Counted from the stretch's first letter, positions 19,258 to 48,301 are shown. The stretch is DNA of 64,000 bases from Candidatus Poribacteria bacterium (GCA_009839745.1 VXPE01000070.1:24445-88444); one strand, 5' to 3'. Notes: generated from the sequence alone by a model not told the origin. Program-made: numbers and translations.

Positions 19258-19413
19258 ATATCTTCTGTAATATTGCAGGATAGCACACCGTGTGCCTACT
19301 ATTTTCTCTTAAAAAATTGCAATTCTATATCTCTATATGATATATTAATGATACGTAATTCAGGGAGAAAAAACAAATTTTTCGCCCGTTGTAACATATA
19401 AGGAAATACAATC

Positions 19414-21051: not shown

Positions 21052-21057
21052 TTCACA

Positions 21058-21164: not shown

Positions 21165-21408
21165 GGTGCGTCCGAATTTCGGTTTTCAGTGAATAACGTC
21201 TGCGCTATGATCTAACTGATTGAAGGATTACCCAAATTAGGGGGGAATCACATAAATCACGATAATCTCGGTTAAAAATTATAGTGGTAGATTTTGATTG
21301 TGCTGTGGCATAGAAAATGCTATTATCTTATTCTAACGTGTCGTAGTCTTTAGTTTATTTATTTCGAGATGTGCTTCGTTTTTTTAGAGGAGGGTTCTGT
21401 ACCAAACA

Positions 21409-22449
21409 ATGGCAGTTTCAACAATTGAATGGGTGGATGGCAGAATTCGGATGATTGACCAGACGCTGTTACCCAATGAATTCAAACAGATTTATTGCGA
21501 TGATCTCCCATCGGTTTGGGAAGCCATCAAATCCTTGCGTGTGCGGGGTGCGCCCGCGATCGGTATTGCGGGTGCGCTGGGTGCAGTAATTGGTATATGG
21601 GATTCCACTGTAAACACATACGATGCTTTTACCGCTGAACTTAAATCCGCGACCGATTATTTGGCGACCTCGCGACCGACAGCCGTTAATCTCTTTTGGG
21701 CATTGGACAGAATTACCCAGACAGCACAAGAGAACTGTCACCTTCAGATCCCTGAACTCAAAGAGGTCCTACTTGCTGAGGCTTTGAAGATTATTGATGA
21801 GGACAAAGCGATGTGCCGCGCCATTGGGCAGCACGGTATGGCGTTGCTAAACGAAAGTGATACAATTCTGACGCATTGCAACGCCGGTGGGTTAGCGACA
21901 TCCGACTACGGCACAGCGTTAGCGGTTATGTTCAGTGCGCACGAGGCGGGTAAGAAGATCCAAGTTTACGCTGACGAGACGCGTCCCCTTTTACAAGGCG
22001 CACGTCTTACGACATGGGAGCTCATGCAAGCCGGTATCGATGTGACGCTCATCTGCGATAACATGGCAGCACAGGTCATGAAAGAAGGCAAAATCCAATG
22101 TGTGATTGTCGGTGCCGACAGGATTGCCGCAAACGGCGACACCGCAAACAAGATCGGCACCTATAATGTCGCTATCCTTGCAGAAGCACACGGCATCCCT
22201 TTTTATGTCGCAGCACCGACTTCAACCTTAGACTTCGCGCTCGGCACCGGGGCAGAAATCCCTATTGAGCAACGTGCTGCGGAAGAGGTGACAGAAGGTT
22301 TTGGGAAACTTACGGCGCCTGAAGGCGTTAAAGTCTATAGTCCTGCGTTTGATGTCACGCCCGCGGCGTTAGTTACAGCGATCATTACGGAAAAGGGTGT
22401 GGCGCGCGCCCCTTATATAGAGAGCCTACAGGCTTTGAGAGACACGTAA
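21409..22449 (+). CDS. mtnA: S-methyl-5-thioribose-1-phosphate isomerase
   Basis: 'WVDGRIRMIDQTLLP', 'IKSLRVRGAPAIG' and 'GADRIAANGDTANKIGTY' (eIF-2B-like family). Confidence 0.9.
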   Translation: MAVSTIEWVDGRIRMIDQTLLPNEFKQIYCDDLPSVWEAIKSLRVRGAPAIGIAGALGAVIGIWDSTVNTYDAFTAELKSATDYLATSRPTAVNLFWALDRITQTAQENCHLQIPELKEVLLAEALKIIDEDKAMCRAIGQHGMALLNESDTILTHCNAGGLATSDYGTALAVMFSAHEAGKKIQVYADETRPLLQGARLTTWELMQAGIDVTLICDNMAAQVMKEGKIQCVIVGADRIAANGDTANKIGTYNVAILAEAHGIPFYVAAPTSTLDFALGTGAEIPIEQRAAEEVTEGFGKLTAPEGVKVYSPAFDVTPAALVTAIITEKGVARAPYIESLQALRDT

Positions 22450-22458
22450 AGTTTCAAG

Positions 22459-23748
22459 TTATGCGGCGTCCGCAATGTTCAAGCGAGTGCCACTTATATC
22501 GAAGCAGTCGTACTGGTTCGTGTGCATAATCCGGGTTGCAAACGCCATTGCCTGTTTTTCAGAGAGGTACCCGTCCGCAATCTCGGCTTCAAGGGCACGT
22601 TGAATTTCGTTTCGCGCTTGAATCGCATACGCCATCGCGCTGGTCGGCCATCCCGTATCACCGCCGAAAGCGAACAATTTATTTGACGGGACGGCATGGA
22701 TGCACCGGCGGAGGAAATCACGCGAACTATACGGATCAATGCTCCATGCCCAGCAGAAATCGACCCAGATATTACGGTAATGTTTGGCGAGGGCGACGAG
22801 TTCATCGTTATAAGGGTAGGCGATGTGCATCAATACAAATTTCGCGTCGAGATACCGAGCGAATAAGGCGCACATATTGCCCGCAGGGATACGTCGCACT
22901 GGCATCCGATCGTTGCCGGCATAATAACCCGTATGAATCTTGAAAGGGAGGTTGTGTTCAATCGTGAGTTCAACGCCGCGCGCCCAGCACCAATCGCCCA
23001 GACAGAGGCGTGTCGCTTCGTCGATTTCTGGAGCCGGTTTCGTGAGTACAGCATTAAGCGCAGTAGCAGCCTCGGCATCGCTTCTTTCAATCCAGTCGAG
23101 CGTTCGATTGTAAGCGTGTTGTGATTTTACTGCGATAGCACACGGGGCGTGCTTGGCGAAAATCGCCGCCATAGCAGTCTTAAGGGAAGTTAGATCGTTG
23201 ACTTCGACCCCTGTTTCTGCATGAATAGCACTTGGATCGACTTGTCCGTTACAGAATGTTGCCCACGAGAGATCGTAGAGGAAAAAATCGGGACCGGAGG
23301 TGTCCGGGTCACACTGCCAACTGAAATCGTCCGTTTGAATATGGTCAAGATTCGCGAGGTCGTGTAAAATGTGATAACGTTTACCGGGGGCGCGAAGTCC
23401 TTTTAGATTATTGGCACCCGCGAGCCCATCGCCTGTCAGTTCGTCGAGTCCATAGATGTGTTTAGCGATGAGGCTGACCGCCTCGCCATACCCCGTAAAC
23501 TGCGTCGCTTCCCAGGCGTCCCGGATACCTTCAAACCGTGATGCGACATCTTGAGAGGCGTCCATCAGGTTGCGCATCGCTTCTGGAGACACCCCGGCTG
23601 TTACCAGGTCGGCAGGCACATAATTTCCGAATAGGTCTTGGAGGATATCGGGTCCGTTCTCAACCCATTCGATTTCGCGCTTCATGTGTTCGTGTGTGTC
23701 AACAAGACGAATAGATTGAATATGATGTGTCAGGTCGGTGGTTTCCAT
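22459..23748 (-). CDS. amidohydrolase-superfamily metal-dependent hydrolase
   Basis: 'LVDTHEHM' H-x-H metal motif at the start of a TIM-barrel-sized protein. SD AAGGAG lies upstream. Confidence 0.65.
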   Translation of the reverse strand: METTDLTHHIQSIRLVDTHEHMKREIEWVENGPDILQDLFGNYVPADLVTAGVSPEAMRNLMDASQDVASRFEGIRDAWEATQFTGYGEAVSLIAKHIYGLDELTGDGLAGANNLKGLRAPGKRYHILHDLANLDHIQTDDFSWQCDPDTSGPDFFLYDLSWATFCNGQVDPSAIHAETGVEVNDLTSLKTAMAAIFAKHAPCAIAVKSQHAYNRTLDWIERSDAEAATALNAVLTKPAPEIDEATRLCLGDWCWARGVELTIEHNLPFKIHTGYYAGNDRMPVRRIPAGNMCALFARYLDAKFVLMHIAYPYNDELVALAKHYRNIWVDFCWAWSIDPYSSRDFLRRCIHAVPSNKLFAFGGDTGWPTSAMAYAIQARNEIQRALEAEIADGYLSEKQAMAFATRIMHTNQYDCFDISGTRLNIADAA

Positions 23749-34617: not shown

Positions 34618-36027
34618 ATGGAACAACACAGACCACAAGAGATCAAGGGGCTTTTTCACATGTTGGAACACACCGCAAAGATCGCAGAGGACGCTGCGTT
34701 AACGGGAGCGTTCAGTGGTGGTGAAACGCGGTGCATCTCCCAATTCAATAACATCCTCAAACGTCTCAGGGACATCAACGCGATCCCCGATGGACTTTTT
34801 GAGGAACTGGAAGCAGATGCTTCTTTTAGCCACATTGGCATAGCGTGTCATCAACTTGCCGCCTACCTCAACGAAGAATTGGACACGACTGCGGATTTCC
34901 AAGGCTGGTTCTCCAGTTTCTTCGGCAAACGTTTCATGGAAAATCTAACAGAGGAGTTGTCGGACAAACCCTTCGGCGACCTCATTCGCAAAGCCGTCCC
35001 AGATTTCTTAACCGAGACGACGTTAGAAGACCTTGTCGAAGTCTTCCCCGTTGCTCCCGGTGGAAAACTAACGATCGATGCTGATTTCGGAGCAATTGAC
35101 GTGCAGAGCACAGACACCGATAATGTTTCTGTCCGCGTTCGACGTGCCGCACAGTTGAAAGAAGATCGGCGTGCGGGGGAAATCCTCAAGAATTTTGATG
35201 TCCAGATGACACATGCAGCCGTAGATGTTAAAATTGAGGCAAAATTCAGGGGTCCCGTAAAGCAGTGGAAAAAGGCGAAAAAACGCTTGGATGTCCAATT
35301 TGAAATCGTCGTTCCGCGAAATTACAGGCTTGATTTGAAGACCGCGGACGAGGGAATTTCCGTTGTGGATATAGTCGGAGATGTAAGCACCCACACAGCC
35401 GGGGCAGGACTCCATTTACAAAATATTACCGGACATATCGATGGAACGACTTCCGGTGGAAACATAGATCTCAAGGCGTTTGAGGGCGACGCGACACTTC
35501 GAACGAGTGGCGGGAATATTGCGCTTGACGGCGGCACTGGCGATGTCAAAGCCAAAACGTCGGGTGGCAACATCCAGATGACTGATGTCAGGGGTGCTGT
35601 CAATGGGGAAACCTCCGGCGGCACTGTTACGCTCCGCGGATGTAAAGGCGGCGCAGACGTGAAAACTGCTGGTGGGAGTATAGAGGTAGAAAACGACGGA
35701 CCCGTCCTTGCGAAAACGAGTGGCGGTTCTATCCGCTGTCTGCTCCAAGAGGCAGTTTCCAGTCAGAACTTGCTGCTGGATCTGGAAACAATCGGTGGGA
35801 GTATCAATGTTTCGCTCGTCCCGGATATTGCTGCGACGGTCGAGGCACGGGTGCTTGGCGGTTCAGTCACCACAGAATTCCCGGTAGCTGCAGAGACGAC
35901 AGGGACTGTCAAACCCGATCAGTTGCGGGGAACTATCAACGGTGGCGGTTCACTTTTGAAACTTTTCTCCGTCGGTGGGAACGTCATACTCAGGAAGACA
36001 GAGAGTCACACACCAACAGCAGTATAG
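34618..36027 (+). CDS. DUF4097-type beta-helical protein (possible anti-sigma partner)
   Basis: Repeated 'SGGNI.L', 'TSGGNIQM', 'TSGGTVTL', 'TAGGSIEV' and 'TSGGSIRC' units. It sits immediately downstream of the ECF sigma gene. Confidence 0.7.
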   Translation: MEQHRPQEIKGLFHMLEHTAKIAEDAALTGAFSGGETRCISQFNNILKRLRDINAIPDGLFEELEADASFSHIGIACHQLAAYLNEELDTTADFQGWFSSFFGKRFMENLTEELSDKPFGDLIRKAVPDFLTETTLEDLVEVFPVAPGGKLTIDADFGAIDVQSTDTDNVSVRVRRAAQLKEDRRAGEILKNFDVQMTHAAVDVKIEAKFRGPVKQWKKAKKRLDVQFEIVVPRNYRLDLKTADEGISVVDIVGDVSTHTAGAGLHLQNITGHIDGTTSGGNIDLKAFEGDATLRTSGGNIALDGGTGDVKAKTSGGNIQMTDVRGAVNGETSGGTVTLRGCKGGADVKTAGGSIEVENDGPVLAKTSGGSIRCLLQEAVSSQNLLLDLETIGGSINVSLVPDIAATVEARVLGGSVTTEFPVAAETTGTVKPDQLRGTINGGGSLLKLFSVGGNVILRKTESHTPTAV

Positions 36028-36191
36028 TGTTTTAAAAATAGGACTTACGCCCGTTTTTCTTTTGTAGCATAGGCTGTTAGCCTGTGCCCTGAGGTGCGGT
36101 TAATGCGATATAAACTTTTAGAAATGGTATAACAGAGCGTGCTACGGTCAAAACCGCGTAATTCCTAAAAACTTTGAAAGCAACACGAGCG

Positions 36192-37325
36192 TTAATGTTT
36201 AGGTTTCCAGTGCTTATCCTTGGTTAATTCAACTTCAACTAATTCCAATTGCTTCTCCGCAAAGAACTCTTTTAAGTCCTCGGAAAGTTGTTTGATAGGT
36301 TGTTGAAATTCGACGATGTTAATCAATTCTTGTCCTATTGAAGACAGTTGGAGCCCGGGCATGTGGAAATTCCAGTCCGGGGTCAGACTGCTTTGACGAG
36401 ATCTAAGGAAATAGTAGTTATTAGTATATAAAAAGGGAGCAACTGACGTTTCATTTAAAGAAGGTATAAGTGGTAAAGTTTCTACAAAAACCTCGGCGAT
36501 GTTTAAGGTAACTCCACCCATATAATTTATATTCACCCCAGGATTCGCTGGTAGCAACGAATATTCCTGTAGCCTTTCTAAATTTGGTATAGAAATTCCG
36601 TAATTTTCTAAAAACCTATTCGTTCTTCCTACATCAAAACTTGGAAAAATTGACTGATAAATAAAGCCAGAGCCAGCGGGAGCGTCAAATGAAATGCAAC
36701 CAGAACAGAAAGTTCTAAATATTGATGCAGTCTCTGAATCTATTTGACCTAATAGTTTGATGGCACGTATTGAAAAGGTACCAGGTCTTTTAATCTCACC
36801 TGCCAGTATGCGAGCAAAACGTTCTTGCATTTCTTCCGAACTTTTCTGGCAAGCTTCATTTTCAAAGTCATTGAGCCAGTCATCTTGGATGGTCTTTTCC
36901 GAATCCCCCTCGACATTTTCAGTTATTGAACTATCATATTCCGTTTTCTTCAAGTGACCTACGGTCATAGACAAGATTTTTTCAAGGTTAAACTGTTCTC
37001 TCAGTATCTTTTCCGCAAATCTATTACCGGCTCTCTGTGGAAATTCCGGATCAACTTTCATTTGTTGGATAATTTGGTTTGTAACTTCTGTCTGAATTCT
37101 AATACGTCCCTCCGATTCTGATCGTTTTTCGGCAGATCTTCGTTCAAGATATCCAACGGGCACATCCATTAAAGCAGAACACAATCGATCAATAACTTTA
37201 AACATGTTACGACTAATTGGAGCAGGGATAGTTGAATCTGATACAAGATCACGGACAACGTCTATAGCAGAATTAGTTTCATCTGCAATAGTTGGCGGAG
37301 GATTCTTTTCGATTTCGTCAGACAT
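36192..37325 (-). CDS. hypothetical protein, DUF2806-like central motif
   Basis: 'DDWLNDFENEACQKSSEEMQERFARILAGEIKRPGTFSIRAIKLLGQIDSETASIF' matches my memory of DUF2806; this is unverified. ATG 37325 has AAGGA 7 nt upstream. The ORF-track start is a TTG. Confidence 0.5.
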   Translation of the reverse strand: MSDEIEKNPPPTIADETNSAIDVVRDLVSDSTIPAPISRNMFKVIDRLCSALMDVPVGYLERRSAEKRSESEGRIRIQTEVTNQIIQQMKVDPEFPQRAGNRFAEKILREQFNLEKILSMTVGHLKKTEYDSSITENVEGDSEKTIQDDWLNDFENEACQKSSEEMQERFARILAGEIKRPGTFSIRAIKLLGQIDSETASIFRTFCSGCISFDAPAGSGFIYQSIFPSFDVGRTNRFLENYGISIPNLERLQEYSLLPANPGVNINYMGGVTLNIAEVFVETLPLIPSLNETSVAPFLYTNNYYFLRSRQSSLTPDWNFHMPGLQLSSIGQELINIVEFQQPIKQLSEDLKEFFAEKQLELVEVELTKDKHWKPKH

Positions 37326-37392
37326 TATCAAATCCTTTCGGTTATTTTATACTCACTAATTTTCTAATCTGGTTCAGTCGAGAAACTTAATG

Positions 37393-39246
37393 CTACTCCA
37401 CAACAACCGTCTCCTCACCAAGCATATCAATAATCTTCACCGCAACGCGGGCATCAGGACGCGGGAGCGATACGGTGTATTCTCCCTCAACAAAATCTTC
37501 CTTTTTCTTTGGAACGTCGCTCTCGACTATTTTGAAATGCTCCCCCGTGTAATCGGTATCAATCAGGACACAATCAATCTGTGCGCGGAAGTCGTCGATT
37601 TGTTCGTCAAAAATGGTGCGGTCAATATCCATCCGTGCTAAAATGGTTGGACTCATGTACTCTGCGATGGTAATTTTAACACTATCTCCCTTTCTCTCAA
37701 AATTAATCTCTGCTGATGCAGGTTCAAAAGTAGTGACTCCTTCACTACCGATGTCGCGCACAAAGATTTTGTTTACTGCGCGCCGTCTGTTTTCCTCCTT
37801 GAGTTCCGCCTGAATCCCGCTATTGATACCGTAACAAAATACAGTGATGTTACGCGACTCATCTGGCCGCTTCTCAAGTTCGTCTTTAATTGTCTGAATG
37901 TCTAATGGCGTGAGCGGTTTCGTTAGGTCAATGATTTTGACGAGTGTTCCGTCCAAGGTGCCATTAAAAAACGCCTCTTGCCTATCAGTTTGCACGCCAT
38001 ATTTTTTCATGACAATATCCCTTCGCTCCAAATCGGTACTTGCATCGTAGTTATTGACGCGATAGTGTGCCATGCCGCGCTGCATATTTGGTAGCGTCTG
38101 TAGTCTTTTTATTGTTGTCTGGATCGCCCCTTTGTTAATATCTGCAGCAATCCAACGTCTGCCGAGTTTTTCTGCTACGGCAGCAGTGGTGCCACTTCCG
38201 ACAAAACAGTCAAGGACGATAGAATTTTTATTGCTTGATGCTTCGATGATACGCACAAGGAGTGCTTCGGGCTTTTGAGTTGGGTAATGAAGATATTCGT
38301 TCGGATTAACACCTAACCCAGGAATATCATCCCATATATTATCAGCAACTGTTTTCTCAAGAACTTTATCACCAACAGTTTCGCGGTGATACTTGATCCT
38401 TATTTTGCCTGCCGTTACCGACACCTTGCCATCCTTAATCAAAAGTTTCCCACCGCGTGTGACAAAAATGCGTCCTTCTTTATAAAGTTTAATAATGCTC
38501 TCGTCAGAGTATGTCCCTGGGTCGGAAGTTGCGAAGAAATCTTTATCATCTTTTTTGAATTTTCGCTTGGCTTCTTCCAACGAGAGGGTAATAACTTTTT
38601 CGATTTTATTCCAAATTGCGTTGTCCTTGTCTTTTGCATAGAGATAAATATAATCCGAACTAAATGGCATAAACTCGGCATGTGTTTTCATTCCTCGGAC
38701 AATTTGTCGACGCCATGTCACCAAGTTAAGAAAATTGCTTTTCCCAAAAATCTCGTCCATTGCAAGGCGGAGATAACTATTCATTCGCCAGTCACAATGC
38801 ACGTAGATTGACCCATTATCAGTCAACAATTCCCGCATCAAAATCAACCGTTCATACATGAATTGGAGATAGTTGTCATTTGCCCAGATATCGGTGTATT
38901 GCGTCTGTTCAATCACAGAATGTCCCTCAGCCTTCAAATCTTCTTTCTTACCACGTAGTTTCACTTTCCGCACGTAGTCTGCACCACTTGCAAACGGAGG
39001 ATCAATATAAATGAGGTCAATCTTGCCACGGAAACCTTGCACAAGCAGCGTGGAGAGAATCTCTTTATTGTCGCCGTGAAAAAGGAGGTTGGGACCGTCT
39101 TTAAATTTGTCATAAGTCGGTTCTTGCTCTGGGTTCTCCACGTCATAAGTATCCACCAATTGTGCAGGATAATTGCTTATTGTGTCAATTGGACGTTTGC
39201 CGACCCAGTGAAGCATAGGTCTGCCTTTAACTGGTTTTATTTTCAT
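37393..39246 (-). CDS. site-specific DNA methyltransferase, beta-class N6-adenine type (type III Mod-like)
   Basis: N-terminal 'LHWVGK', motif IV 'LIYIDPPFASG' preceding motif I 'LDCFVGSGTTAAVA', with a long variable region between them. SD AGGAAG lies upstream. Confidence 0.85.
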   Translation of the reverse strand: MKIKPVKGRPMLHWVGKRPIDTISNYPAQLVDTYDVENPEQEPTYDKFKDGPNLLFHGDNKEILSTLLVQGFRGKIDLIYIDPPFASGADYVRKVKLRGKKEDLKAEGHSVIEQTQYTDIWANDNYLQFMYERLILMRELLTDNGSIYVHCDWRMNSYLRLAMDEIFGKSNFLNLVTWRRQIVRGMKTHAEFMPFSSDYIYLYAKDKDNAIWNKIEKVITLSLEEAKRKFKKDDKDFFATSDPGTYSDESIIKLYKEGRIFVTRGGKLLIKDGKVSVTAGKIRIKYHRETVGDKVLEKTVADNIWDDIPGLGVNPNEYLHYPTQKPEALLVRIIEASSNKNSIVLDCFVGSGTTAAVAEKLGRRWIAADINKGAIQTTIKRLQTLPNMQRGMAHYRVNNYDASTDLERRDIVMKKYGVQTDRQEAFFNGTLDGTLVKIIDLTKPLTPLDIQTIKDELEKRPDESRNITVFCYGINSGIQAELKEENRRRAVNKIFVRDIGSEGVTTFEPASAEINFERKGDSVKITIAEYMSPTILARMDIDRTIFDEQIDDFRAQIDCVLIDTDYTGEHFKIVESDVPKKKEDFVEGEYTVSLPRPDARVAVKIIDMLGEETVVVE

Positions 39247-39258
39247 TGTGTGTTCTTC

Positions 39259-39963
39259 CTATGTTGTAGGCTGGAGTGCCATTTTTTCAACTGTTCGGCC
39301 AAGTATTCTTAAGTTTAGAGATTTTTGTTGCACAAAACTATCCCAAGATGTATAGCATCGAATAGATGCTTTTTTAGGTTTTGGAGCGTCTTCCGTGTTT
39401 TTCAGTCTCCGGATTAAAAGTTCCATTGTTTTTTGTATTTTCTCCGCAGTAGGATATTTGGAGAAGGGAGGAATTGTATTTGCATCAATAAATCCTTGAT
39501 GGATATTGTCTGAGCTTCGTTTTAAATTACTCTTCCAAAATCTCCTTTCACGATTAGTTGCAGTCAATCGCCCACATGTAAAATCGTATCCCCAACGTGC
39601 AAAATCTTCTTTTAACTTTGCAAATAAATTATCTGAGATAATAAAAAAATCAAGATCCGACTTGTTATCAATAAAAGGGGCACCGAGTTTACAAGGGTCA
39701 AAAGATTTGCCTAACTGCGCACTTCCCACCAAACCAATTTCTTTTGCTTTAACCTCTAAACGATCTGCAACCCAACAACGAATAGAATCATATATGGCCG
39801 GACAAATAGAAAAAACAGATGGTATTCCTTCAGATAACCAGAGTCTTGCAATCGTCTCTTGGGCTTCTTTACCACCTTCAAGTGCTACTTGAAGCAACAA
39901 TGCTGGATCGGGATAGTGGACAAACAGCTTTCGGAGTGATGCTTCAATTTCAAAAGGTTTCAT
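39259..39963 (-). CDS. hypothetical protein with pol-beta-fold nucleotidyltransferase-like motif
   Basis: 'LVGSAQLGKSF..(15 aa)..SDLDFFIISD' resembles G-S...D-x-D of minimal NTases. ATG 39963 has GGAGA 6 nt upstream. It overlaps the upstream ORF by 14 nt and ends 12 nt before the mod gene. Confidence 0.5.
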   Translation of the reverse strand: MKPFEIEASLRKLFVHYPDPALLLQVALEGGKEAQETIARLWLSEGIPSVFSICPAIYDSIRCWVADRLEVKAKEIGLVGSAQLGKSFDPCKLGAPFIDNKSDLDFFIISDNLFAKLKEDFARWGYDFTCGRLTATNRERRFWKSNLKRSSDNIHQGFIDANTIPPFSKYPTAEKIQKTMELLIRRLKNTEDAPKPKKASIRCYTSWDSFVQQKSLNLRILGRTVEKMALQPTT

Positions 39964-40675
39964 TTTGAATCTCCCCATAAGATTTTAGACTTTCACTCAT
40001 AGTATTGGCTAGTGTTATTAAATGACGACCTCTACGCTGAATTTTCTCTAAATGTTCAGACCCACATTCTCCAGGTTCTGGATATTTTAATCGAGCAACG
40101 AGCTTAGCAGCCTCAAAAACATTAATCGATTTTGGATTAATTCTCAGTCTTGTGCAAGCCTGCCTAAAATTGTTCATTCCCCAACCATAATAAGCAATCC
40201 ATAAATAAAGAATTGGCAATCGATCTTTCGGAATATATCGCGTCAAACGGACAGCAAAAAAAATCTCAATAAATTTTCGCCTCCACGTTTTTTCATAACG
40301 ACCTGTGACTGCTCTGACAAACTGCATAGCGATTGTTGACCCCCCCTGCCTTACTCCACAGAAAACAGTTTTCCAAAGTGCTCTACAAAGAGCAAACAGA
40401 TCAACACCAAGATGTTCATAAAAGCGATGATCTTCGCCGACAATGAGCAGCTTACACATTTGTGGTGTTGGGATCGGGAAATCAGTTTGAGCGATTTCTA
40501 ACTCCAACTTTTCGACTGAGTCACATAGTTGTTCCCATTGGATTTTAATCGGTACTTGCATCAGAATTTCCCATATATATGGTGAATGTACTACCATCGG
40601 AAATTTGGGCCACCATCTAAACCAAGATTGTGGTATAATAACAATCCCTCCAATGGCCAAACGCAGAAGATTCAC
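39950..40675 (-). CDS. GT51-like (peptidoglycan glycosyltransferase / MtgA-like) domain protein
   Basis: Ordered GT51 blocks 'GEDHRFYEHLGVD', 'QGGSTIAMQ', 'RRKFIEIFFAVRL', 'KDRLPILYLWIAYYGWG' and 'AAKLVARLKYPEP', with a hydrophobic N-terminus. The start is uncertain: GTG 40675, ATG 40597 or ATG 40561. Confidence 0.7.
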   Translation of the reverse strand: MNLLRLAIGGIVIIPQSWFRWWPKFPMVVHSPYIWEILMQVPIKIQWEQLCDSVEKLELEIAQTDFPIPTPQMCKLLIVGEDHRFYEHLGVDLFALCRALWKTVFCGVRQGGSTIAMQFVRAVTGRYEKTWRRKFIEIFFAVRLTRYIPKDRLPILYLWIAYYGWGMNNFRQACTRLRINPKSINVFEAAKLVARLKYPEPGECGSEHLEKIQRRGRHLITLANTMSESLKSYGEIQNETF

Positions 40676-40683
40676 TTCCGATT

Positions 40684-40810
40684 ATCCTACAAGTGTCCAA
40701 CCAGAAACGCCCTCACTCGGCATTAGGCTATTTAGCCCCTGTCGGATGTGAGTCACAACACTTGTCTTAACTGGACGGATTTTTTGGTCTAAATAAGGGT
40801 TGGCACTCCA
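40684..40810 (+). pseudogene. IS3-family transposase 3' remnant with element end
   Basis: The frame reads '..NQKRPHSALGYLAPVGCESQHLS*' (40699-40770), the conserved C-terminal integrase-core tail of IS3 transposases. No upstream part of the gene is present. Confidence 0.6.
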
Positions 40811-40813
40811 GAC

Positions 40814-40966
40814 TCATTCTTGTTTCTGTTCAAAGTCTGCAATACTTTGATAGCTGTTCTGAAGTAGAGCGATAATATCAACCCCCATGTTTTTGGCAGC
40901 ATTCCAGTCAGATTTGGCTTTTTCAAGTTCTCCTATATTTAACCACGCCATACCCCGAAAACTATA
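40814..40966 (-). pseudogene. 3' fragment of the IS-disrupted TIR-TPR gene
   Basis: The minus frame reads 'YSFRGMAWLNIGELEKAKSDWNAAKNMGVDIIALLQNSYQSIADFEQKQE*'. It joins in-frame to the 5' part once the IS and one TATA copy are removed. Confidence 0.6.
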
Positions 40967-42003
40967 TAACCCAAGTTGCTAGTAGTGCATCAAGATTGAG
41001 TTTATGATAAGTAGGTCGGGTAGAGCGTCAGCGAAACCCGACATCTTCAGGAGACCCCACTCTTAAACTCAAAGTTGAAAGACTACTAGTTAGTAATGAG
41101 TTGTAAATCCATGGGACATCCTTTATAGTGTTTTTATCCTAAAAAACCAAAAGGAGCACCCCATGGACCTAACTATTGTAGCAGTTTATACGATTTGTGA
41201 CGACCTTTTAATCTCACTCGGACATCAAGACGACCCTCGCGCAAAAATGTCGGATGCTGAAGTCATGACGACCGCCCTCATCGCCGCGAGATACTTTGGG
41301 GGTAATCAACAAACGGCTTGTGCCGCCTTGAAAACACTCGGATATATCCCGAATATGTTGGGACATTCCCGCTTCAACCGGCGACTTCATCAGGTATCAG
41401 AACACTTTCAAACGCTTTTTCAAGTCCTCGCTGAGGGGTTCAAAGCCGAGAACTCAGAGAATATCTACAGTATTGATACGTTTCCTGTAGCAGTGTGCGA
41501 CAATATCCGTATTTCTCGTTCACACCTGTATCAAGGGCCCGATTGGCATGGCAGGATCGCAAGCAAACGCCGCTACTTCTATGGGTTAAAAGCGCATCTG
41601 ATGGTCACCGAGACCGGTAAAATCGTTGAAGCGTTTTTCACCCCAGGACGCTGTTCGGATGTGCTTGGCTTACGGTGTTATGCCTTTGATTTACCCCAAG
41701 GGTCTGTTGTATACGCAGATAAAGCGTATTGTAACTATGGTATTGAAGATGCTTTAGCAGCCTCCGGGATTTCACTAAAACCTATTCGTAAGAAGAATGC
41801 TAAACGTCAGTATCCGCCTCATGAAGTTTATCTGCAACACTTCCACAGAAAGCGCGTGGAGGTGACCAACAGTCTCATTGAGCAACTCTTCCCGAAGTCG
41901 ATCCATGCGGTGACGGCTGTCGGTTTTGAGTTGAAAGTCTTCTTGTTTATCATCGCTACAAGCATTAGACAACTCTTTGGAGAAGAATAGCAACTTGGGT
42001 TAG
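40967..42003 (+). mobile_element. IS982-family insertion sequence (about 1.04 kb)
   Basis: Terminal inverted repeats AACCCAAGTTGCTA (40968-40981) and TAGCAACTTGGGTT (41988-42001). Single transposase ORF. TATA occurs on both flanks (40963-40966 and 42004-42007). Boundaries are good to about 2 bp. Confidence 0.75.
41163..41990 (+). CDS. IS982-family DDE transposase
   Basis: 'VYTICDDLL', 'SIDTFPVAVCDN', 'YFYGLKAHLMVTETGKIVEAFFTPGRCSDV', 'VYADKAYCNYGIEDAL' and 'RKRVEVTNSLIEQLF'. SD AAGGAG lies upstream. Confidence 0.8.
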   Translation: MDLTIVAVYTICDDLLISLGHQDDPRAKMSDAEVMTTALIAARYFGGNQQTACAALKTLGYIPNMLGHSRFNRRLHQVSEHFQTLFQVLAEGFKAENSENIYSIDTFPVAVCDNIRISRSHLYQGPDWHGRIASKRRYFYGLKAHLMVTETGKIVEAFFTPGRCSDVLGLRCYAFDLPQGSVVYADKAYCNYGIEDALAASGISLKPIRKKNAKRQYPPHEVYLQHFHRKRVEVTNSLIEQLFPKSIHAVTAVGFELKVFLFIIATSIRQLFGEE

Positions 42004-43189
42004 TATAGTCTGCGATTGCTTTGTCATACTCACCAAGCGCAGCATAAGCCTCGCCGCGAATAGTATATACCTCGTCCTCCATAGTATAGACTTCGTTACG
42101 AACTGAATACAATTTTATTGCTTTGTTGCAGTTTTTGATGGCACGTTTGTAATTGCCTTTCCTGGAATAAGTCGCCCCACGGTTCACGTAGGCAACGGGA
42201 TAATTAGGTTTAAGCCTTATCGCCTTATTCAAATCTACGACCGCTTTGTCACATTCACCAATCATATTGTAAACTCCACCACGAGTAGTGTAAGCCTCAG
42301 CATAATCTGGCATCAGTTTTATTGCCTTGCTACATTCTTTGAGGGCGCGTCTATAATCACCCTTACTGCCATAAACTTCCCCAAGATTCAGGTAGGCAAT
42401 GGCAGAATTTGGATATAGTTCAATCGCTTTGTTATATTCTTTGATGGCGCGCTCATTTTCGTTTTTTCCGTCATAAGCAGCACCTCGGTTGTTATAGGCA
42501 AGTGAAAAATTTGGTTCGAGATCAATTGCTTTTGTAAAGTCTTTTATTGCTTTGTCGTGTTCACCTTGCATGTGGAAGGCAGCCCCTCGATTGTTATACG
42601 CACCAACATGGCGTGGATTGAGTTCAAGCGCCTGTGAGTAGAATTCTATCGCTTTGTTGATTTGATCCAGCATCAGTATGAAGTTACCCTGTTGGAACAC
42701 CCACTCAGTAAGTTGATCGCTCTGAGTATTCTCAGATGATAGGCCTTCCCGAGTCTTTATTTTTTCAATAACTTTCCATATACCTTCTACCACATTTTGC
42801 CAACCTTCGCTCTTATCATCCCATTTGCTAAGAGACTTACCTTTGTGAGGAAGCACTTCAAAACGACTAATTTGATGACGTAGCCAATCGCAATGTTCAA
42901 GGAGAATCGGGATAACCTTTATTTTTTGGTTCAATGCCTCTACTAATTCCCTGTTGCAGTTTTTAGAGGCGAGACTGGCAGCGGAGACGAGGTAGATAAG
43001 CAAATCCGAATCAGCAACTTTTTCGAGAATATTTTCCTGAAGTGCTTCGTCGCCTGGGGTAAGTCGACAATCATCCCAAGTTACTAACTCGTTTTGCTGC
43101 TCCATTACAGCGAGACGTTCTCGTAATTCGTCTTTTTGTTTTGCATCCTTGTGTGAATAGGTAATGAATCCTTTTAGTGGTTTGTTCAC
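42004..43189 (-). pseudogene. TIR-domain / TPR-repeat protein, 5' part (interrupted by IS982 after codon ~395)
   Basis: TIR 'GFITYSHKDAKQKDEL..SKNCNRELVEAL', followed by at least 7 TPR units ('AYNNRGAAF..', 'AYLNLGEVY..'). The GTG start overlaps the upstream stop (GTGA). The ORF-track tail 41828-42003 is antisense IS sequence. Confidence 0.8.
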
Positions 43190-43527
43190 GATTGTTTCTC
43201 CATAACACCGTGCTTTGAATGGGCGGAATCTTTTAATGTGGAAAGAATGTCCAGTACTTTATCCAATTGCGGTGGGGGCTCGGTATTAAGGAGATAGGTG
43301 AGCGTCTGCGGACTGAGATTTGTCCATGCAACCAGTTCTTCAACTCCGCCTTGCGCTTCTGCAATATCTTTCAGGCAGAGCAATAATAATTCAATATTAC
43401 CATCCTTATCAAAGTCTTGGAGGGCAGTTTCCAAGTAACCTTTTGCAAATTCCGGTTGTACCAAGTCTTTAAGGAGGTAGTCTTTAAACCTTATTGTGCA
43501 ATGTCGAAGCTTAATCTCTGTGTTCAT
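43186..43527 (-). CDS. HigA-like addiction-module antidote protein (HTH)
   Basis: 'FAKGYLETALQDFDKDGNIELLLLCLKDIAEAQGGVEELV..NLSPQTLTYLL'. ATG 43527 has AAGGAG 8 nt upstream. Confidence 0.75.
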   Translation of the reverse strand: MNTEIKLRHCTIRFKDYLLKDLVQPEFAKGYLETALQDFDKDGNIELLLLCLKDIAEAQGGVEELVAWTNLSPQTLTYLLNTEPPPQLDKVLDILSTLKDSAHSKHGVMEKQS

Positions 43528-43532
43528 TGTGA

Positions 43533-43868
43533 TTACTCCTTCATGTGTCCTAAGAAGTCGTTCCAATAGTTTTGTGCTCTGTCAATATCCCGCTGTTGTG
43601 TGCCTTTCGTACCCCCACAAAGCAAGATAATGTCATTTTGAAAAAGTCCGAAATAGACGCGATATCCAGGACCATAACGGATTCTCAATTCATATAAACC
43701 TGAACTTAATCGCTTGAAGTCGCCAAAGTTCCCTATTCGCAAACGTGTAATTCTATTGGATATAGCTATCCGTGCATTTTGATCTCTAATCCGCGTGTAC
43801 CATTGCTGATATGAATCGCGGCCACTTGGTGTTGTGTAGGTGAGTATTTCTCTGGGACGAATTTGCAT
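43533..43868 (-). CDS. HigB/RelE-family addiction-module killer protein
   Basis: 'RLRIGNFGDFKRLSSGLYELRIRYGPGYRVYFGLFQNDIILLCGGTKGTQQRDIDRA'. Toxin-first gene order. Confidence 0.78.
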   Translation of the reverse strand: MQIRPREILTYTTPSGRDSYQQWYTRIRDQNARIAISNRITRLRIGNFGDFKRLSSGLYELRIRYGPGYRVYFGLFQNDIILLCGGTKGTQQRDIDRAQNYWNDFLGHMKE

Positions 43869-43954
43869 GTTTATAAGTGTAATGAAATTTTTAGCAATTT
43901 TTAACCTTTTTCCATCCACACAGCGTGAGAACCACCACTTATACCGAACTCACA

Positions 43955-46612
43955 CTAAATTATTTCACTATCGTTCTGCAAAGATTCGTTCCCATAAATC
44001 CATTCTCGGATAGTCTGCATTTCGTCTAAATTCTCTTGAAGGAAAGCATCCCTCGTATAAATGACCTTATATTCAAAATGAGCCTCTGGCTGCAAATTTT
44101 TCAAACGTTCCACTGCCTTCTCTTTTGCTACGACGATAGGGTCGCCGCGTTCACTTTCAGACTTAATCTCAACGATGTAGAATTCCCCTGTGTTCTTGAC
44201 GATAACAAAATCCGGAAAATAACGGTGATAATTGTTATCAGTGCCTTTGTATTCAAAGTGGAAATCGGTCTTCTTTGTATTCGTCAAACTTCCTGTAAAC
44301 AGGAAGACTTTGACATCTGCAACCGACTGATTCAGCGTTGCTAAAATCGTTTTAAAGAAATTCTGTTCAGGTCCGCTATCAAAGTCGTAGGGCATATAAT
44401 GAAAACTTACACCGTGGCTATCGTCTAAGTCCTCTTTACTGAGTAGCAGGTCAGCTTTGCTTTTGCGCAGACGCACCTTGTGAACGTAGCAGTCCTCAGT
44501 ATCATCTTTCTCAAAAAGTAGATTGCCATCGTCATCGTGGATACGAATCAGCGCGAGGTGTTCTGCAATCTGTTCCTCAATCACTTGGTAATTTTGCTGC
44601 TGGTCTTCCACTTGTTTGCACAGCGAATCGAAGTGTTTATACGGAACTTGACCCTCTGGATAGAGACTTTTGAGGCTTTTTAACGTCTCCATAACAGAGA
44701 GATGATAGTTTGTCGCAAGCCGTCTCGCCAGTGTGTAGCAGTCCGTTGTCCGATTCGTTATCTCAACTTCGTCCTGCGTTCCTAACGCTGTTAGCGGAGA
44801 GGCTCCCCGCTGCGTAAAGTCGGGGGTCAGAATGCTGCGAAAAGCAGCCAGAGTCTCCCCTACATCTGTAGGTTTGTGCAGCTGAATCTCTTTAGGTGCA
44901 TTTTCCAATGGGACAACCCGGCGCACCAACTGCATAATTTTTAATTTCGGCAAATCAGGCTTACGAATGCGGAGTGCAAATTCTTCCGTTTCCGCGTCTT
45001 GTTTACGCAGTTCACCAAGTGTCGTACCAAAGTTTGCCTGTAATTCTTTATCTAAAATCGTACTGTTTTTCGTATCCAAAAAGATTTTGGCAGTGTGCGT
45101 GTTGCCTTTCACTTGACGGAGACATCGGGTTGAGGCTTGCAAAATAAAATTACTGCTCGTTGTCTGCTCCTTAATCAGCGCGCAAGCGAATAGACTGGGG
45201 CAGTTCCAGCCCTCTGTCCCTTTGCCAATAAGTAGAATAATACGTTTCTGACTGTCAGAATTATTCAGCCGCTTGAATTCATCAATCTCCTGCGGACTTG
45301 ATTTTTGGGTATTGACGAGTATCTGAGTGGTACTCTCTCTCCTTTGGGTAAGTGCGTTTTGAATGTACTGATGGGAGGTATCCAAATGTTCTTGCGTTTT
45401 GAAGTAAAAGGCGATTTTCGCTTTCGCCCCACCGGGCAATGATATATCACCGTAGTGGTCAAAAAAATCATCTATAACGCTACGGATTACGTCTGCATCA
45501 GGCATCATTCCAATAGGGTACTGAACAATGCCGTTGTGAAGACTTTTGAGGATGTTGTCCTTAATTCCTTCACCGAGACTATACCACGCCACAACTTCTC
45601 TGAGCATCTGCCGTTTGGCGTAAGGCGTGCCAGTGGTATTGATAACAGCAACGAGAGGCGTTTTCTCATGTATGTAGTTAACCGTTTCCCGCACCCGTTT
45701 AAGTTCCGCGTCTATTTTGTTTCCGTAAGTGTGATGTGCCTCGTCTGAGAAGACCCCTAAACTTGGCAGACTCGTGATTTTTTGTAGTCGGAGGTTTGCC
45801 TCTAATTCTGCCTGCTCCTTCTTCTCTTCAAACTCTAATTCTGTCTGATTACTTCGCTTTTTGAGATTTGCCCGAAGCGCGATTTTCTCAGTGTTCGTGA
45901 CAATAACGTTGTAAGTACTACCGGCTTGAACCTGAATTTCTTTTGCTCCGGTCTGTGGATAGGTGATTTTGAGATTGGCGAGAAAATCACGATGTAGACT
46001 GGCAGGCAAAACCTGATCAAAAGGGATGTCACTGATTTCACGGAGGCTTTCAATAATCGTTGTACCGGGCGCAAAGACGAGGGCATTTTTCATGAAATTG
46101 CCCTCTGGATAGCGAAGTGCCATCGCGAATTCAGTTGCAATAATGGCACCAATAAGAACCGTCTTGCCTGTGCCCATCGCAAGCGCGAAGATATAACTTG
46201 GATAAGGAAGTGTTACAGCTTCATAAACAGGGTCAATTCCTTTCAGTTTAACAAATTCTGGGGTGTGTTCCACTAAATTAATAACTGCATCAACATTTGT
46301 AATGTATATCAGATCGTTTGGAGTGAGTGGGATTCCGAAGGCTTCGCAGAAATCGCGTATATCGCCGGTGTCGTAATAGTGTTTATAGATGTCTACGATA
46401 TGTGGGGTTTTCAACACTAATCGCAGGAACCAATAGAGTTCTAATGATTGGAATTGCGGTTCGCGAAGGTATTTGAGGTGAACACGATCATCTGCTTCTC
46501 CTTCAAACTGATAGCGTAGTATTTCTCCGATGAGTGGGTAATCTTGGCAGGGATATCCATCTTTACGCCAGTTCAATGTATCATCACGTAGTTTTTCAAA
46601 AAGGTGTTGCAT
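43955..46612 (-). CDS. type III restriction Res-like SF2 helicase with C-terminal PD-(D/E)xK nuclease
   Basis: 'LREPQ', Walker A 'AMGTGKT', 'SDEAHH', 'TGTP', 'GTEGWNCP' and 'QASTRCLRQ'. C-terminal 'YFPDFVIV..YIVEIKSE'. Confidence 0.82.
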   Translation of the reverse strand: MQHLFEKLRDDTLNWRKDGYPCQDYPLIGEILRYQFEGEADDRVHLKYLREPQFQSLELYWFLRLVLKTPHIVDIYKHYYDTGDIRDFCEAFGIPLTPNDLIYITNVDAVINLVEHTPEFVKLKGIDPVYEAVTLPYPSYIFALAMGTGKTVLIGAIIATEFAMALRYPEGNFMKNALVFAPGTTIIESLREISDIPFDQVLPASLHRDFLANLKITYPQTGAKEIQVQAGSTYNVIVTNTEKIALRANLKKRSNQTELEFEEKKEQAELEANLRLQKITSLPSLGVFSDEAHHTYGNKIDAELKRVRETVNYIHEKTPLVAVINTTGTPYAKRQMLREVVAWYSLGEGIKDNILKSLHNGIVQYPIGMMPDADVIRSVIDDFFDHYGDISLPGGAKAKIAFYFKTQEHLDTSHQYIQNALTQRRESTTQILVNTQKSSPQEIDEFKRLNNSDSQKRIILLIGKGTEGWNCPSLFACALIKEQTTSSNFILQASTRCLRQVKGNTHTAKIFLDTKNSTILDKELQANFGTTLGELRKQDAETEEFALRIRKPDLPKLKIMQLVRRVVPLENAPKEIQLHKPTDVGETLAAFRSILTPDFTQRGASPLTALGTQDEVEITNRTTDCYTLARRLATNYHLSVMETLKSLKSLYPEGQVPYKHFDSLCKQVEDQQQNYQVIEEQIAEHLALIRIHDDDGNLLFEKDDTEDCYVHKVRLRKSKADLLLSKEDLDDSHGVSFHYMPYDFDSGPEQNFFKTILATLNQSVADVKVFLFTGSLTNTKKTDFHFEYKGTDNNYHRYFPDFVIVKNTGEFYIVEIKSESERGDPIVVAKEKAVERLKNLQPEAHFEYKVIYTRDAFLQENLDEMQTIREWIYGNESLQNDSEII

Positions 46613-46670: not shown

Positions 46671-47615
46671 TCATACATCATTATACTTTTCGTCTATTTC
46701 CTGGGCAATTACTTTCAAGGTTTCTACTTGCCGTTGTGTAAAGTCTGCGAAGATGTAGGTATCGTCCGCATGGATGTGAGTTTCATCCGGGGCGCAAAAG
46801 CATGCCTTGATGTGTTGCAAGGCATAATCAAGATTTTTGTATATGTCCTCTATATTGTCATCCGGTTCATCTCGTTCTCTCAATCCAGCCTTAAAGGTCT
46901 CAACGGATTTTAATATCTGATCAACATAATAACCAACAAGTTGAGCATGGGCCGAATCTGCGGACAAAATAGCCTCAAATATTTTTGTAAATGGATATGT
47001 TGTATGCTGGAAGGCATCAGCTAATTTTTTATCTGCAAATTTTTTTCTATGTTCCACTTCTTCTTCCTTTAAAGTTTCAATTACGTTATTCAAAACATCT
47101 TCAAAAACTCCTTTTTGCGTTGCAATTAAATCAGGAACACTTATATCCACATGCTTGGAATTAAGTGCTTTACCTCCTGATTTTGCTGGATAGAGTGTCA
47201 TTAGATGAAACTCTTGAGCACTAAGAGTTACGCGGGTAATGAAGTTAAATGCTTTTTTGTTACCTCTATTTGTAGGATGTCCAGCAGCGTCAATGCGAAT
47301 ATGCCGGATTTTTTCTAATGCAGTATCCTTGGTGTACGGAATTTTAAGAGCTTCATGTAGATTTTTTACGGCTTCTTGCTGCACATAGAGAGCCTGCAAA
47401 GCACCATAGATACGCAAATAATTTCTGCCTTTGTCAGAACTATCAGTGTCTAATTTTAGAAAACTTTCTAACGCTTCTTCTGTGTCCCCAATAGTATCCA
47501 TACAACTGCAAAGCATGTACCACAAGGTGGAATCTCGAATTAAGAGATTTTGCTTGCGGGAACTATTGATTAAATCTCGAATTTTACTAATTCGTTCGTT
47601 AAGAGGATATTTCAT
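46671..47615 (-). CDS. hypothetical protein (possible HEPN-like Rx5H motif)
   Basis: Clean 314-aa ORF with SD AGGAAG. It ends 58 nt upstream of res. The only motif I noticed is 'IRHIRIDAAGHPTNR'. Confidence 0.55.
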   Translation of the reverse strand: MKYPLNERISKIRDLINSSRKQNLLIRDSTLWYMLCSCMDTIGDTEEALESFLKLDTDSSDKGRNYLRIYGALQALYVQQEAVKNLHEALKIPYTKDTALEKIRHIRIDAAGHPTNRGNKKAFNFITRVTLSAQEFHLMTLYPAKSGGKALNSKHVDISVPDLIATQKGVFEDVLNNVIETLKEEEVEHRKKFADKKLADAFQHTTYPFTKIFEAILSADSAHAQLVGYYVDQILKSVETFKAGLRERDEPDDNIEDIYKNLDYALQHIKACFCAPDETHIHADDTYIFADFTQRQVETLKVIAQEIDEKYNDV

Positions 47616-47710
47616 AATTATACACTTCCTACTGTGTTGTCAAAATTGCAAATGTGGCACTTTGTAAGTATCCGTTTGTGCTGTTTAGCATCGCAGGATT
47701 TTCCAAAACC

Positions 47711-48301
47711 TTAATCACGGAACGTGACGCGTTCGTAGATCTCCTGCAAGGGCAATTCGCACTCGATAGAAGGAAATAGTAGCATCTCATCAGGTCCTTC
47801 AAAATCGGTAAAGATCCACTGCCTTTCTTGGCGACGGTAGTGTTCAACACGAACCTGGTCTTGCGCCACAAGGACATATTCCTGCAACGAGGTGAGTTGG
47901 CGATAGTGCGCGAATTTTTCACCGCGATCATACACTTCGGTGGAGGGTGAAAGCACTTCTATAACGACAATCGGGTTCAAGAGCATGTCAAAAACATCGT
48001 CTTCAAAACGAGGTTCTGCACAGACAACCCCCACATCAGGATAAAAGTAGGATTTTGTTGTCGGAATGCTGATACGCATTTCGTTGGCGAAAACAGCACA
48101 CTCAGTACCCATCAAGCTGGTATGCAACCTTGCAGAAATGTTCATTGTTATCAGATTATGCGCGAAACTTGCTCCAGACATAGGAATAATCTCTCCATTC
48201 ATGTATTCGCTTCTGACGGTTTCCGCATCAGGTATCGCCTTGCGTTCTAAAATAATGTATTCTTCTGGTGTGAGGTATGTTTGGGCTTCTCGCGTCGCCA
48301 T
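47711..48301 (-). CDS. Uma2 (DUF820) family putative endonuclease
   Basis: 'LTPEEYIILE', 'EYMNGEIIPMSGASFAHN', 'YPDVGVVC', 'NPIVVIEVLSPST' and 'GEKFAHYRQLTSLQEYVLV'. Confidence 0.82.
   Translation of the reverse strand: MATREAQTYLTPEEYIILERKAIPDAETVRSEYMNGEIIPMSGASFAHNLITMNISARLHTSLMGTECAVFANEMRISIPTTKSYFYPDVGVVCAEPRFEDDVFDMLLNPIVVIEVLSPSTEVYDRGEKFAHYRQLTSLQEYVLVAQDQVRVEHYRRQERQWIFTDFEGPDEMLLFPSIECELPLQEIYERVTFRD

Follow-up and report, generated by a model that had tools for sequence, protein, structure and literature searches.

A putative Type III-like restriction locus of Candidatus Poribacteria with embedded gene cassettes, one of them a GT51/NTase-like pair

A two-gene cassette within a four-gene block

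This study concerns a stretch of 64,000 nucleotides (nt) from a Candidatus Poribacteria bacterium (GCA_009839745.1, VXPE01000070.1:24445-88444; the whole stretch is hereafter called the window) and a block of four open reading frames (ORFs) in it, at 36192-40675, encoding a GT51-like protein, a nucleotidyltransferase-like ('NTase-like') protein, a Mod-type DNA methyltransferase, and a DUF2806 protein. A first-pass annotation had remarked that the block looks like one transcription unit and recalls multi-gene systems such as BREX and DISARM. Comparative genomics splits it into three independent parts. It is fairly probable that the block is composite: a Type III-like restriction-modification (R-M) system with the gene order res then mod is split by autonomous cassettes, and a stand-alone DUF2806 gene lies after mod. 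This reading follows from the partnership of Mod with a helicase-nuclease, Res, and from the autonomy of the GT51/NTase-like pair. The ORFs of the block are as follows (lengths in amino acids, aa).

39950-40561, minus strand: GT51-like protein, 203 aa, first gene of the cassette; Pfam Transgly, E 7e-27; the ORF is open from a GTG at 40675 (241 aa)
39259-39963, minus strand: 'NTase-like' protein, 234 aa from the second ATG (39963), second gene of the cassette; GS...SDLD motif
37393-39246, minus strand: Mod DNA methyltransferase, from ATG 39246; Pfam N6_N4_Mtase, E 1.4e-46; PADLOC MTase_III, E 4e-59
36192-37325, minus strand: DUF2806 protein, 377 aa from ATG 37325; Pfam DUF2806, E 1.4e-21

A profile search of 1.84 billion representative proteins found 1127 representatives of the NTase-like family at E<=1e-3. 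In all of the 45 loci having upstream sequence, from genomes and metagenomes, a short GT51-like gene lies directly upstream of the NTase-like gene. As a reverse check, three short GT51-like hits were chosen regardless of their partner, and all three are followed by an overlapping ORF of 221-226 aa without a family match. The stop and start codons of the two genes overlap in 43 of the 45 loci, and the overlap is the identical 14 nt in 28 of them. Natural fusions of Transgly and the NTase-like protein were found in five representative proteins, and one fusion was seen in two independent assemblies. The fusion gene P0199 (452 aa; L146:1686-4467) lies at the edge of an integrative element, since it adjoins a phage-type integrase gene and an HTH_17 excisionase-like gene.

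The pair is distributed over more than 12 phyla in all. Its hosts include Poribacteria, Acidobacteriota, Gammaproteobacteria, Betaproteobacteria, Campylobacterota, Desulfobacterota, and Latescibacterota, and further Chlorobiota, Gemmatimonadota, Nitrospirota, Binatia, Ignavibacteria, and Bacillota. Among isolates, at least three have the pair in their genomes (Alcanivorax sp. 1008, Pseudomonas sp. Gutcm_11s, and Halieaceae bacterium GM1-29). Is the pair accompanied by Mod and DUF2806 in these hosts? Mod follows the pair only in the Poribacteria relatives L007, L009, L010, and L012, whose NTase-like proteins are at least 85% identical, and DUF2806 follows Mod only in L010 and L012, being missing from L007 and L009. 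L012, a contig of a Poribacteria metagenome-assembled genome (MAG), is 100% identical to the window over the NTase-like, Mod, and DUF2806 region. Neither Mod nor DUF2806 accompanies the pair in some 50 further loci. When the four genes to either side of the pair in about 48 loci were compared all against all by BLAST, no third conserved gene emerged; the clusters came only from close relatives. Thus, the conserved unit is a two-gene cassette and not the four-gene block. As shown by gene order and linkage, the pair is an autonomous module, strictly linked, overlapping, and sometimes fused, which moves independently of Mod and DUF2806.

No known defence family was matched by the pair in PADLOC (including its PDC models), NCBIfam, or Pfam, where Transgly was the sole match. 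A literature search on transglycosylase or GT51 combined with nucleotidyltransferase, defence, or anti-phage found nothing on the pair. The idea that it is a typical phage gene was rejected, as only two loci were found in 2.9 million viral contigs, and the PHROG matches were weak and of unknown function.

In two of the close relatives, an intact NTase-like gene stands beside a broken GT51-like gene (L007:7420-10011 and L009:9377-10011). L007 keeps only GT51-like residues 151-241 beside the partner, and a frameshift disrupts the GT51-like gene of L009. Such preferential loss would be in keeping with the GT51-like gene as the costly partner, although assembly errors are possible.

Res, Mod, and DUF2806

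Upstream of the block on the same strand lies a gene whose product is the likely partner of Mod.

43955-46612, minus strand: Res helicase-nuclease, 885 aa; Pfam ResIII, E 1e-6; NCBIfam BPTD_3080-family restriction endonuclease, partial match, E 6e-14

The motifs of both proteins were read from their sequences. Res has the superfamily 2 (SF2) helicase motifs AMGTGKT and SDEAHH (DEAH) and a C-terminal FPDF...EIK of the PD-(D/E)xK type. Mod has a DPPF motif before the S-adenosylmethionine-binding FVGSGTT, with a central target-recognition domain; the Pfam N6_N4_Mtase match covers residues 76-378, around the central insert. The best match of Mod among PDB sequences is EcoP15I Mod (4zcf_A, E 4e-20). 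In the window, res comes first, and 4,708 nt separate it from mod.

Are the two genes linked elsewhere? On an Ideonella plasmid, 35 nt separate a Res homologue (40% identity) from a full-length Mod homologue downstream of it (39.5%), and a Mod-homologous methyltransferase also lies next to the more distantly related Res homologues of Yoonia and Enterococcus plasmids. Relatives of Res in metagenomes (79 loci in total) have a same-strand Mod homologue downstream in 69 of the 70 loci with room downstream, and the Mod homologue is within 300 nt of res in 47 of those loci. The close relatives L007, L009, and L010 keep the order Res...Mod, with varying contents in between. Judged by these neighbourhoods, Res and Mod are shown to be conserved partners. 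The Res family is large, with more than 535 relatives in metagenomes.

In the other 22 of the 70 loci, the gap between res and mod holds inserts of 0.6-1.6 kilobases (kb) with unrelated small ORFs, so that the gap is a recurrent insertion site. Among these ORFs, HEPN, MNT, ORF6N-like, Bro-N-like, and DUF1016-like proteins were identified by eye; the inserts viewed are those of L069, L072, L089, L099, L100, L106, L112, L118, L120, L127, L128, and L137. The Poribacteria lineage is an extreme case of such insertion, with a gap of 4.7 kb, and systems of this restriction family seem to serve generally as a landing site for accessory genes.

The Mod sequences of the window (37393-39246), L007:10717-12585, and L010:10952-12826 were compared. 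The target-recognition domain (residues about 160-320) is only 7-42% identical between these relatives, while its flanks are 85-97% identical. A hypervariable domain between near-identical flanks is typical of restriction specificities under diversifying selection, and this suggests that the specificity of Mod may have been swapped among strains.

The Type III systems EcoP15I and EcoP1I (Mod2Res) share several features with Res and Mod: the motif order of Mod with its central and swappable target-recognition domain, EcoP15I Mod as the top match, an N-terminal SF2 helicase and a C-terminal PD-(D/E)xK-type motif in Res, and the conservation of the two genes as a pair. A few observations count against a Type III assignment and against the composite reading built on it. 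The classical order is mod-res, whereas here res precedes mod at a distance of 4.7 kb. Res matched no PADLOC model and no PDB sequence at E<=0.01, EcoP15I Res included. Because of the missing PADLOC and PDB matches and the reversed order, the label 'Type III-like' is used here for the architecture and not for membership. In addition, in L067 (Ga0209754_1000206, 10001-22676), the locus with the closest relative of Res (91% identity), a Mod homologue is missing from the 10 kb downstream of res, and so are homologues of the GT51-like and NTase-like proteins. Thus, the island is very fluid even among close relatives.

NCBI annotates the plasmid homologues of Res as 'DEAD/DEAH box helicase' or 'TnsA endonuclease N-terminal domain' proteins. 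Since Res has no PADLOC or PDB sequence match, systems with res then mod are probably missed by defence-finder tools.

The last gene of the block may start at a TTG two codons upstream of the ATG. Its DUF2806 protein has a weak Abi_alpha match (E 0.004). The plasmid-borne homologues of DUF2806 (Acaryochloris, Phaeobacter, and Legionella) stand alone, with no methyltransferase nearby. A DUF2806 protein named Belisama is, according to a preprint, a single-gene anti-phage system of Vibrio chromosomal integron cassettes (bioRxiv 10.1101/2024.07.02.601686). The two are compared at the level of the domain family: they share the DUF2806 domain, a weak Abi-alpha similarity, and the stand-alone gene in a defence context, whereas the window protein is 377 aa in length with a C-terminal half that lies beyond the Pfam model. 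By analogy, the window gene is treated here as a candidate stand-alone gene of the Belisama kind.

Junctions and transcription signals

Co-directional genes are often tightly packed in bacteria, and packing alone is no proof of a functional unit. Both the ORF list and the sequence confirm the four tightly packed minus-strand ORFs of the first-pass annotation, all in the same direction, and the junctions that it gave are exact. The stop codon of the GT51-like ORF and the second ATG of the NTase-like ORF lie in a 14-nt overlap (39950-39963). A 12-nt spacer separates the TAG of the NTase-like ORF from the ATG of mod (39246), and the Shine-Dalgarno sequence AGGAAG overlaps with that TAG stop. The gap from the mod stop (37393) to the DUF2806 ATG (37325) is 67 nt. 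The labels GT51, Mod methyltransferase, and DUF2806 were borne out by family scans, but the NTase-like protein matches no Pfam, PADLOC, or NCBIfam family.

No terminator-like site turned up on the minus strand when 35800-41400 was scanned for patterns, in agreement with the earlier view that no terminator lies between the genes. All five terminator-like hits are on the plus strand, and 4.7 +/- 2.4 were expected for both strands together. Promoter-like hits numbered 18 versus 11.2 +/- 3.6 in shuffled sequence, a figure that is not above chance and is uninformative; the scan used sigma-70 patterns, whose relevance to Poribacteria is doubtful. Downstream of DUF2806, nothing convincing as a terminator was found (fold z-score -0.98). 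Since the junctions are tight here and the NTase-mod junction of L007 is a 4-nt overlap, it is plausible that one transcript spans at least the GT51-like, NTase-like, and mod genes. In this lineage, mod is probably expressed via read-through from the GT51/NTase-like cassette.

The tight junctions and the lack of a minus-strand terminator-like site would also suit one methylation-dependent defence system made of all four proteins, in which Mod marks self and the other three restrict, as would the NTase-Mod adjacency kept in L007, L009, L010, and L012. Such a system would be expected to recur as a unit, and the four-gene order does recur in L010 and L012, but it is confined to near relatives of the same phylum with NTase-like proteins of at least 85% identity. 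The roughly 50 pair loci without Mod and DUF2806, the conserved partner that Mod has in Res, and the DUF2806 gene, which is absent from L007 and L009 and solitary elsewhere, all speak against it. As in BREX and DISARM, a DNA methyltransferase in a multi-gene locus is flanked by proteins that are atypical of R-M. However, the BREX and DISARM signature genes, which the first-pass annotation had already reported as absent, were indeed not found: PADLOC and Pfam scans of eight island proteins gave no PglZ, BrxC, BrxL, DrmA, DrmB, or DrmC/PLD. Moreover, the methyltransferase here has a dedicated Res, and the extra genes are independent cassettes. A single four-gene system is thus highly improbable.

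Genomic context of the pair

Where does the pair reside in other genomes? It is nested within restriction operons in four lineages, of which three are of Type I and the fourth is the Type III-like case of the window. The association with methylation that had been suspected for the four genes is thus partly right, though in a different way: the pair is repeatedly nested in or adjoins R-M operons. The gene orders of the three Type I loci, and of one further locus, are given below.

L030: hsdM, hsdS, 272-aa ORF, 393-aa ORF, pair, RhuM, hsdR
L038: hsdM-PIN, pair, hsdS, hsdR
L061: hsdM, hsdS, 182-aa ORF, pair, 107-aa ORF, PIN, AIPR, toxin-antitoxin, hsdR
L018:10797-15198 (Acidobacteriota MAG): pair, 361-aa unknown ORF, 1014-aa DUF499 ATPase

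The pair also adjoins a Type II system in L008, a Type IIG remnant in L001, a Type III-like methyltransferase in L055, and a Mod remnant in L014. The DUF499 ATPase family of the L018 neighbour is listed as a core component of BREX-related systems (2026 paper). Other neighbours of the pair match the PADLOC families REase_I, AriA, Dsr1, PtuA, Hma, HEC-01A, IetA, and PDC. With a limited query set, R-M genes were found in the fetched flanks of at least 11 of the 54 non-redundant pair loci.

Embedding of this kind has precedents. PrrC in EcoprrI (PMC12707154), TgvAB in a Vibrio Type I system (PMC11411939), and the HEC and PDC candidates (bioRxiv 10.1101/2024.01.29.577857) are defence genes nested in multi-gene immune systems, and Payne et al. 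reported 'guilt-by-embedding' for Hma, BREX, DISARM, and Type I systems (bioRxiv 10.1101/2024.01.29.577857). The pair shares with these embedded defences the nature of a small autonomous cassette between restriction subunit genes, and the same gaps also house toxin-antitoxin, PIN, AIPR, RhuM, and HEPN/MNT genes. It differs from them in having no PADLOC or PDC match, and neither the text nor 11 supplementary files of Payne et al. mention it; the embedding reported there covers no Type III-like systems.

A nested position could also mean that the pair is a guardian of its R-M host, as PrrC is in EcoprrI. It would be inactive as long as the restriction complex is intact and would arrest growth once a phage anti-restriction protein disables the complex. 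The nesting in four independent lineages and the adjacency to other R-M genes and remnants would fit this explanation, for which PrrC and PARIS are precedents (PMC12707154) along with the embedded TgvAB (PMC11411939) and HEC systems (bioRxiv 10.1101/2024.01.29.577857). However, at least three quarters of the pair loci have no R-M gene in the fetched flanks, given the limited query set. The restriction systems that host the pair are of unrelated kinds (Types I, II, IIG, and III-like), which makes a specific protein-protein sensor unlikely. Furthermore, many unrelated small genes, such as HEPN, MNT, and ORF6N-like genes, share the res-mod gap, which points to a general insertion hot spot. The guardian explanation is therefore unlikely.

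The GT51-like and NTase-like proteins

The start codon of the GT51-like gene is most likely the ATG at 40561 (203 aa) and not the GTG at 40675, because the homologues are 198-232 aa in length and their alignments begin at residues 35-47 of the 241-aa ORF; the upstream extension to the GTG is not conserved. In 47 sequences, the residues E43, D44, G73/S75/T76..Q80, and R95 K96..E99 are invariant. The catalytic glutamates E43 and E99 correspond to E81 and E137 in the numbering of the 241-aa ORF. An AlphaFold2 (AF2) model of the protein (pLDDT 83.5) was searched with Foldseek, and the top 23 hits are all GT51 enzymes, e.g., MtgA (3hzs) and Aquifex PBP1a (2oqo). The protein matches MtgA and PBP1a in sequence as well as in fold.

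With MtgA and the class A PBPs, the GT51-like protein shares the fold (Foldseek probability 1.0, TM-score 0.6-0.7) and the motifs EDxxFxxHxG, GGSTIxxQ, and RKxxE with both catalytic glutamates invariant. The characterised enzymes, however, all have an N-terminal membrane anchor, whereas the GT51-like protein is about 200 aa in length and has none. In a Kyte-Doolittle analysis with a 19-residue window, for which the ORFs were extended upstream to the previous stop codon, 40 of the 44 family members had no hydrophobic 19-mer above 1.6. The classical enzymes are universal, while the GT51-like protein is patchy and mobile and invariably comes coupled with, or fused to, the NTase-like protein.

The NTase-like protein has the invariant residues G80 S81 and S102 D103 L104 D105. 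In its AF2 model (pLDDT 94, pTM 0.88), this motif lies on a strand (76-79) with a short helix (81-84) and on a second strand (104-109), as in polymerase-beta-type nucleotidyltransferases. Weak PF01909 matches were found in 13 of 39 members (best E 0.014). A sequence-profile search of PDB found no relative. Either the protein has a strongly decorated nucleotidyltransferase core, or its fold, as modelled, is one not yet represented.

The pair is comparable with the toxin-antitoxin and Abi pairs MntA/HepT, AbiEi/AbiEii, and MenA/MenT. Two overlapping genes, one of them with a GS...DxD motif of the polymerase-beta type, are common to all, and the pairs are mobile, found in defence islands, and sometimes fused; HEPN-MNT fusions are known (PMC12839542). 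The partner here, in contrast, has a GT51 fold and is not a HEPN protein or a transcription factor, and the NTase-like protein has no significant profile or fold match to MNT.

The conserved catalytic and substrate-binding motifs of GT51 raise another explanation, in which the pair would be an envelope or antibiotic cassette. A soluble GT51 domain would bind a phosphoglycolipid of the moenomycin type or a glycan linked to a lipid, which the NTase-like protein would nucleotidylate; alternatively, the pair would have a niche role with wall precursors. Nucleotidyltransferases of the polymerase-beta-type fold that modify aminoglycoside and lincosamide antibiotics are a precedent. GT51 domains are the target of moenomycin, the top fold hits include the structures 3hzs and 3nb6, and some pair loci lie in housekeeping surroundings. 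On the other hand, the patchy distribution resembles horizontal transfer, with defence islands, restriction operons, and integrases nearby. The GT51-like protein has no secretion signal or anchor with which to reach periplasmic lipid II, and no linkage to cell-wall gene clusters was seen. This explanation is rather improbable.

Other genes of the island

The block lies at the downstream end of a 12-kb defence island of low GC (about 36-48 kb in the window), in which the GC content is 0.39-0.45 versus about 0.50 in the flanks. All genes of the island are on the minus strand, apart from an insertion sequence (IS) transposase gene on the plus strand. In the order of transcription, the island encodes Uma2, a 314-aa ORF, Res, a RelE-type toxin with its antidote, a TIR-TPR protein (split by the IS), the GT51-like protein, the NTase-like protein, Mod, and DUF2806. 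No tRNA or integrase gene was found at the island borders. The genes beyond Res and the block are as follows.

47711-48301, minus strand: Uma2-family protein at the upstream end of the island; PADLOC candidate PDC-S03, E 1.4e-26
46671-47615, minus strand: 314-aa ORF directly upstream of res, without a usable family match (negligible NCBIfam match)
43533-43919, minus strand: RelE/ParE-type toxin; TIGR02683, 106 bits versus a cut-off of 62.85; forms a type II toxin-antitoxin pair with the antidote
43186-43566, minus strand: antidote of the RelE/ParE-type toxin; toxin and antidote also have weak Pfam Gp49 and dnstrm_HI1420 matches
42003-43189, minus strand: 5' part of the TIR-TPR gene; Pfam TIR_2 and TPR; PADLOC ThsB, E 6.7e-24
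40967-42002, plus strand: intact IS982-family insertion sequence within the TIR-TPR gene
40814-40966, minus strand: 3' remnant of the TIR-TPR gene, severed by the IS insertion

The region 46671-48301 is syntenic in L007 and L009. The 314-aa ORF is conserved in L007 in two segments (84% and 64% identity), and it may belong to the system as an extra component or represent one more cassette.

The first-pass annotation had described the upstream edge of the block as an IS3 scar. The element is actually an intact member of the IS982 family. Its transposase (41163-41990, plus strand; 275 aa) is intact and scores 163 bits with the NCBIfam model transpos_IS982 (NF033520) versus a cut-off of 130, and perfect 15-bp terminal inverted repeats lie at 40967-40981 and 41988-42002, 1,006 nt apart. 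When the IS is excised in silico (40966 joined to about 42008), an ORF of about 444 aa ending at 40814 results, with TPR repeats that run across the join. A 562-aa ORF of L009 matches residues 1-397 of the TIR-TPR protein with 90% identity. Since the IS interrupts this neighbouring gene and not the block, the suggestion that the four-gene unit is 5'-truncated was wrong.

The TIR-TPR protein matches the ThsB models, a feature that it shares with Thoeris. The locus differs from Thoeris in that no ThsA-like protein (SIR2/SLOG or Macro effector) was found among the scanned island genes and in that the TIR-TPR gene is interrupted by the IS.

Far from the island, a T-box leader (Rfam RF00230) was found at 2622-2917 on the plus strand, as a full-length model match with 105.5 bits versus a gathering score of 93.

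Discussion

In the composite reading of the block, the frame of the island would be a Type III-like R-M system with res then mod. The space between the two genes would hold the RelE/antidote pair, the TIR-TPR gene that was later hit by IS982, and the GT51/NTase-like cassette directly upstream of mod.

What might the pair do? It may be a conflict module that is complete in itself, of the defence or toxin-antitoxin kind. In a speculative mechanism of low confidence, the GT51-like protein would be a cytoplasmic effector that keeps both catalytic glutamates. Its target, reached from the inner membrane face, would be lipid II or another glycan linked to undecaprenyl diphosphate, and wall synthesis would be blocked. 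The NTase-like partner would serve as a signal sensor or as a restraint on the GT51-like protein, e.g., by nucleotidylation, as MntA adenylylates HepT (PMC7641770). I put forward, tentatively and as a doubtful possibility, that the pair is a new, rare but widespread, two-gene anti-phage or abortive-infection system, in which a cytoplasmic GT51 effector is gated by the NTase-like partner and which resides preferentially inside R-M operons as a second line of defence.

Several observations count against the composite reading and a conflict role of the pair. A role in defence is suggested by the genomic context, and the neighbourhood figures are raw counts without a matched control, so that any enrichment is qualitative only. 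Some pair loci lie amid housekeeping genes; in L002-L004, for example, the pair is between an oxidoreductase gene and lnt. A cytoplasmic location of the GT51-like protein is indicated by a single feature, the missing hydrophobic N-terminus. The assignment of its partner is weak as well. A Foldseek search of the NTase-like model against PDB and BFVD gave nothing at E<1, and in an hhalign comparison with a purpose-built MNT alignment only the motif aligned, with a probability of 6.7%. 'NTase-like' is thus a reasonable lead and not an established membership. Finally, the tight NTase-mod junction and the repeated association with R-M genes could mean a functional dependence on the methyltransferase and not mere embedding.

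If the composite reading is right, the locus is an R-M operon split by embedded cassettes and not a new BREX-like methylation system, and 'guilt-by-embedding' would extend to a Type III-like family with res then mod. The GT51/NTase-like pair, for which no description was found, is a concrete and testable candidate, combining the fold of a cell-wall polymerase without its anchor and an uncharacterised partner. Should the pair serve immunity, it would, to the extent of the searches made here, be the first immune module with a GT51-fold enzyme, and phage defence would thereby be connected with the metabolism of lipid II.

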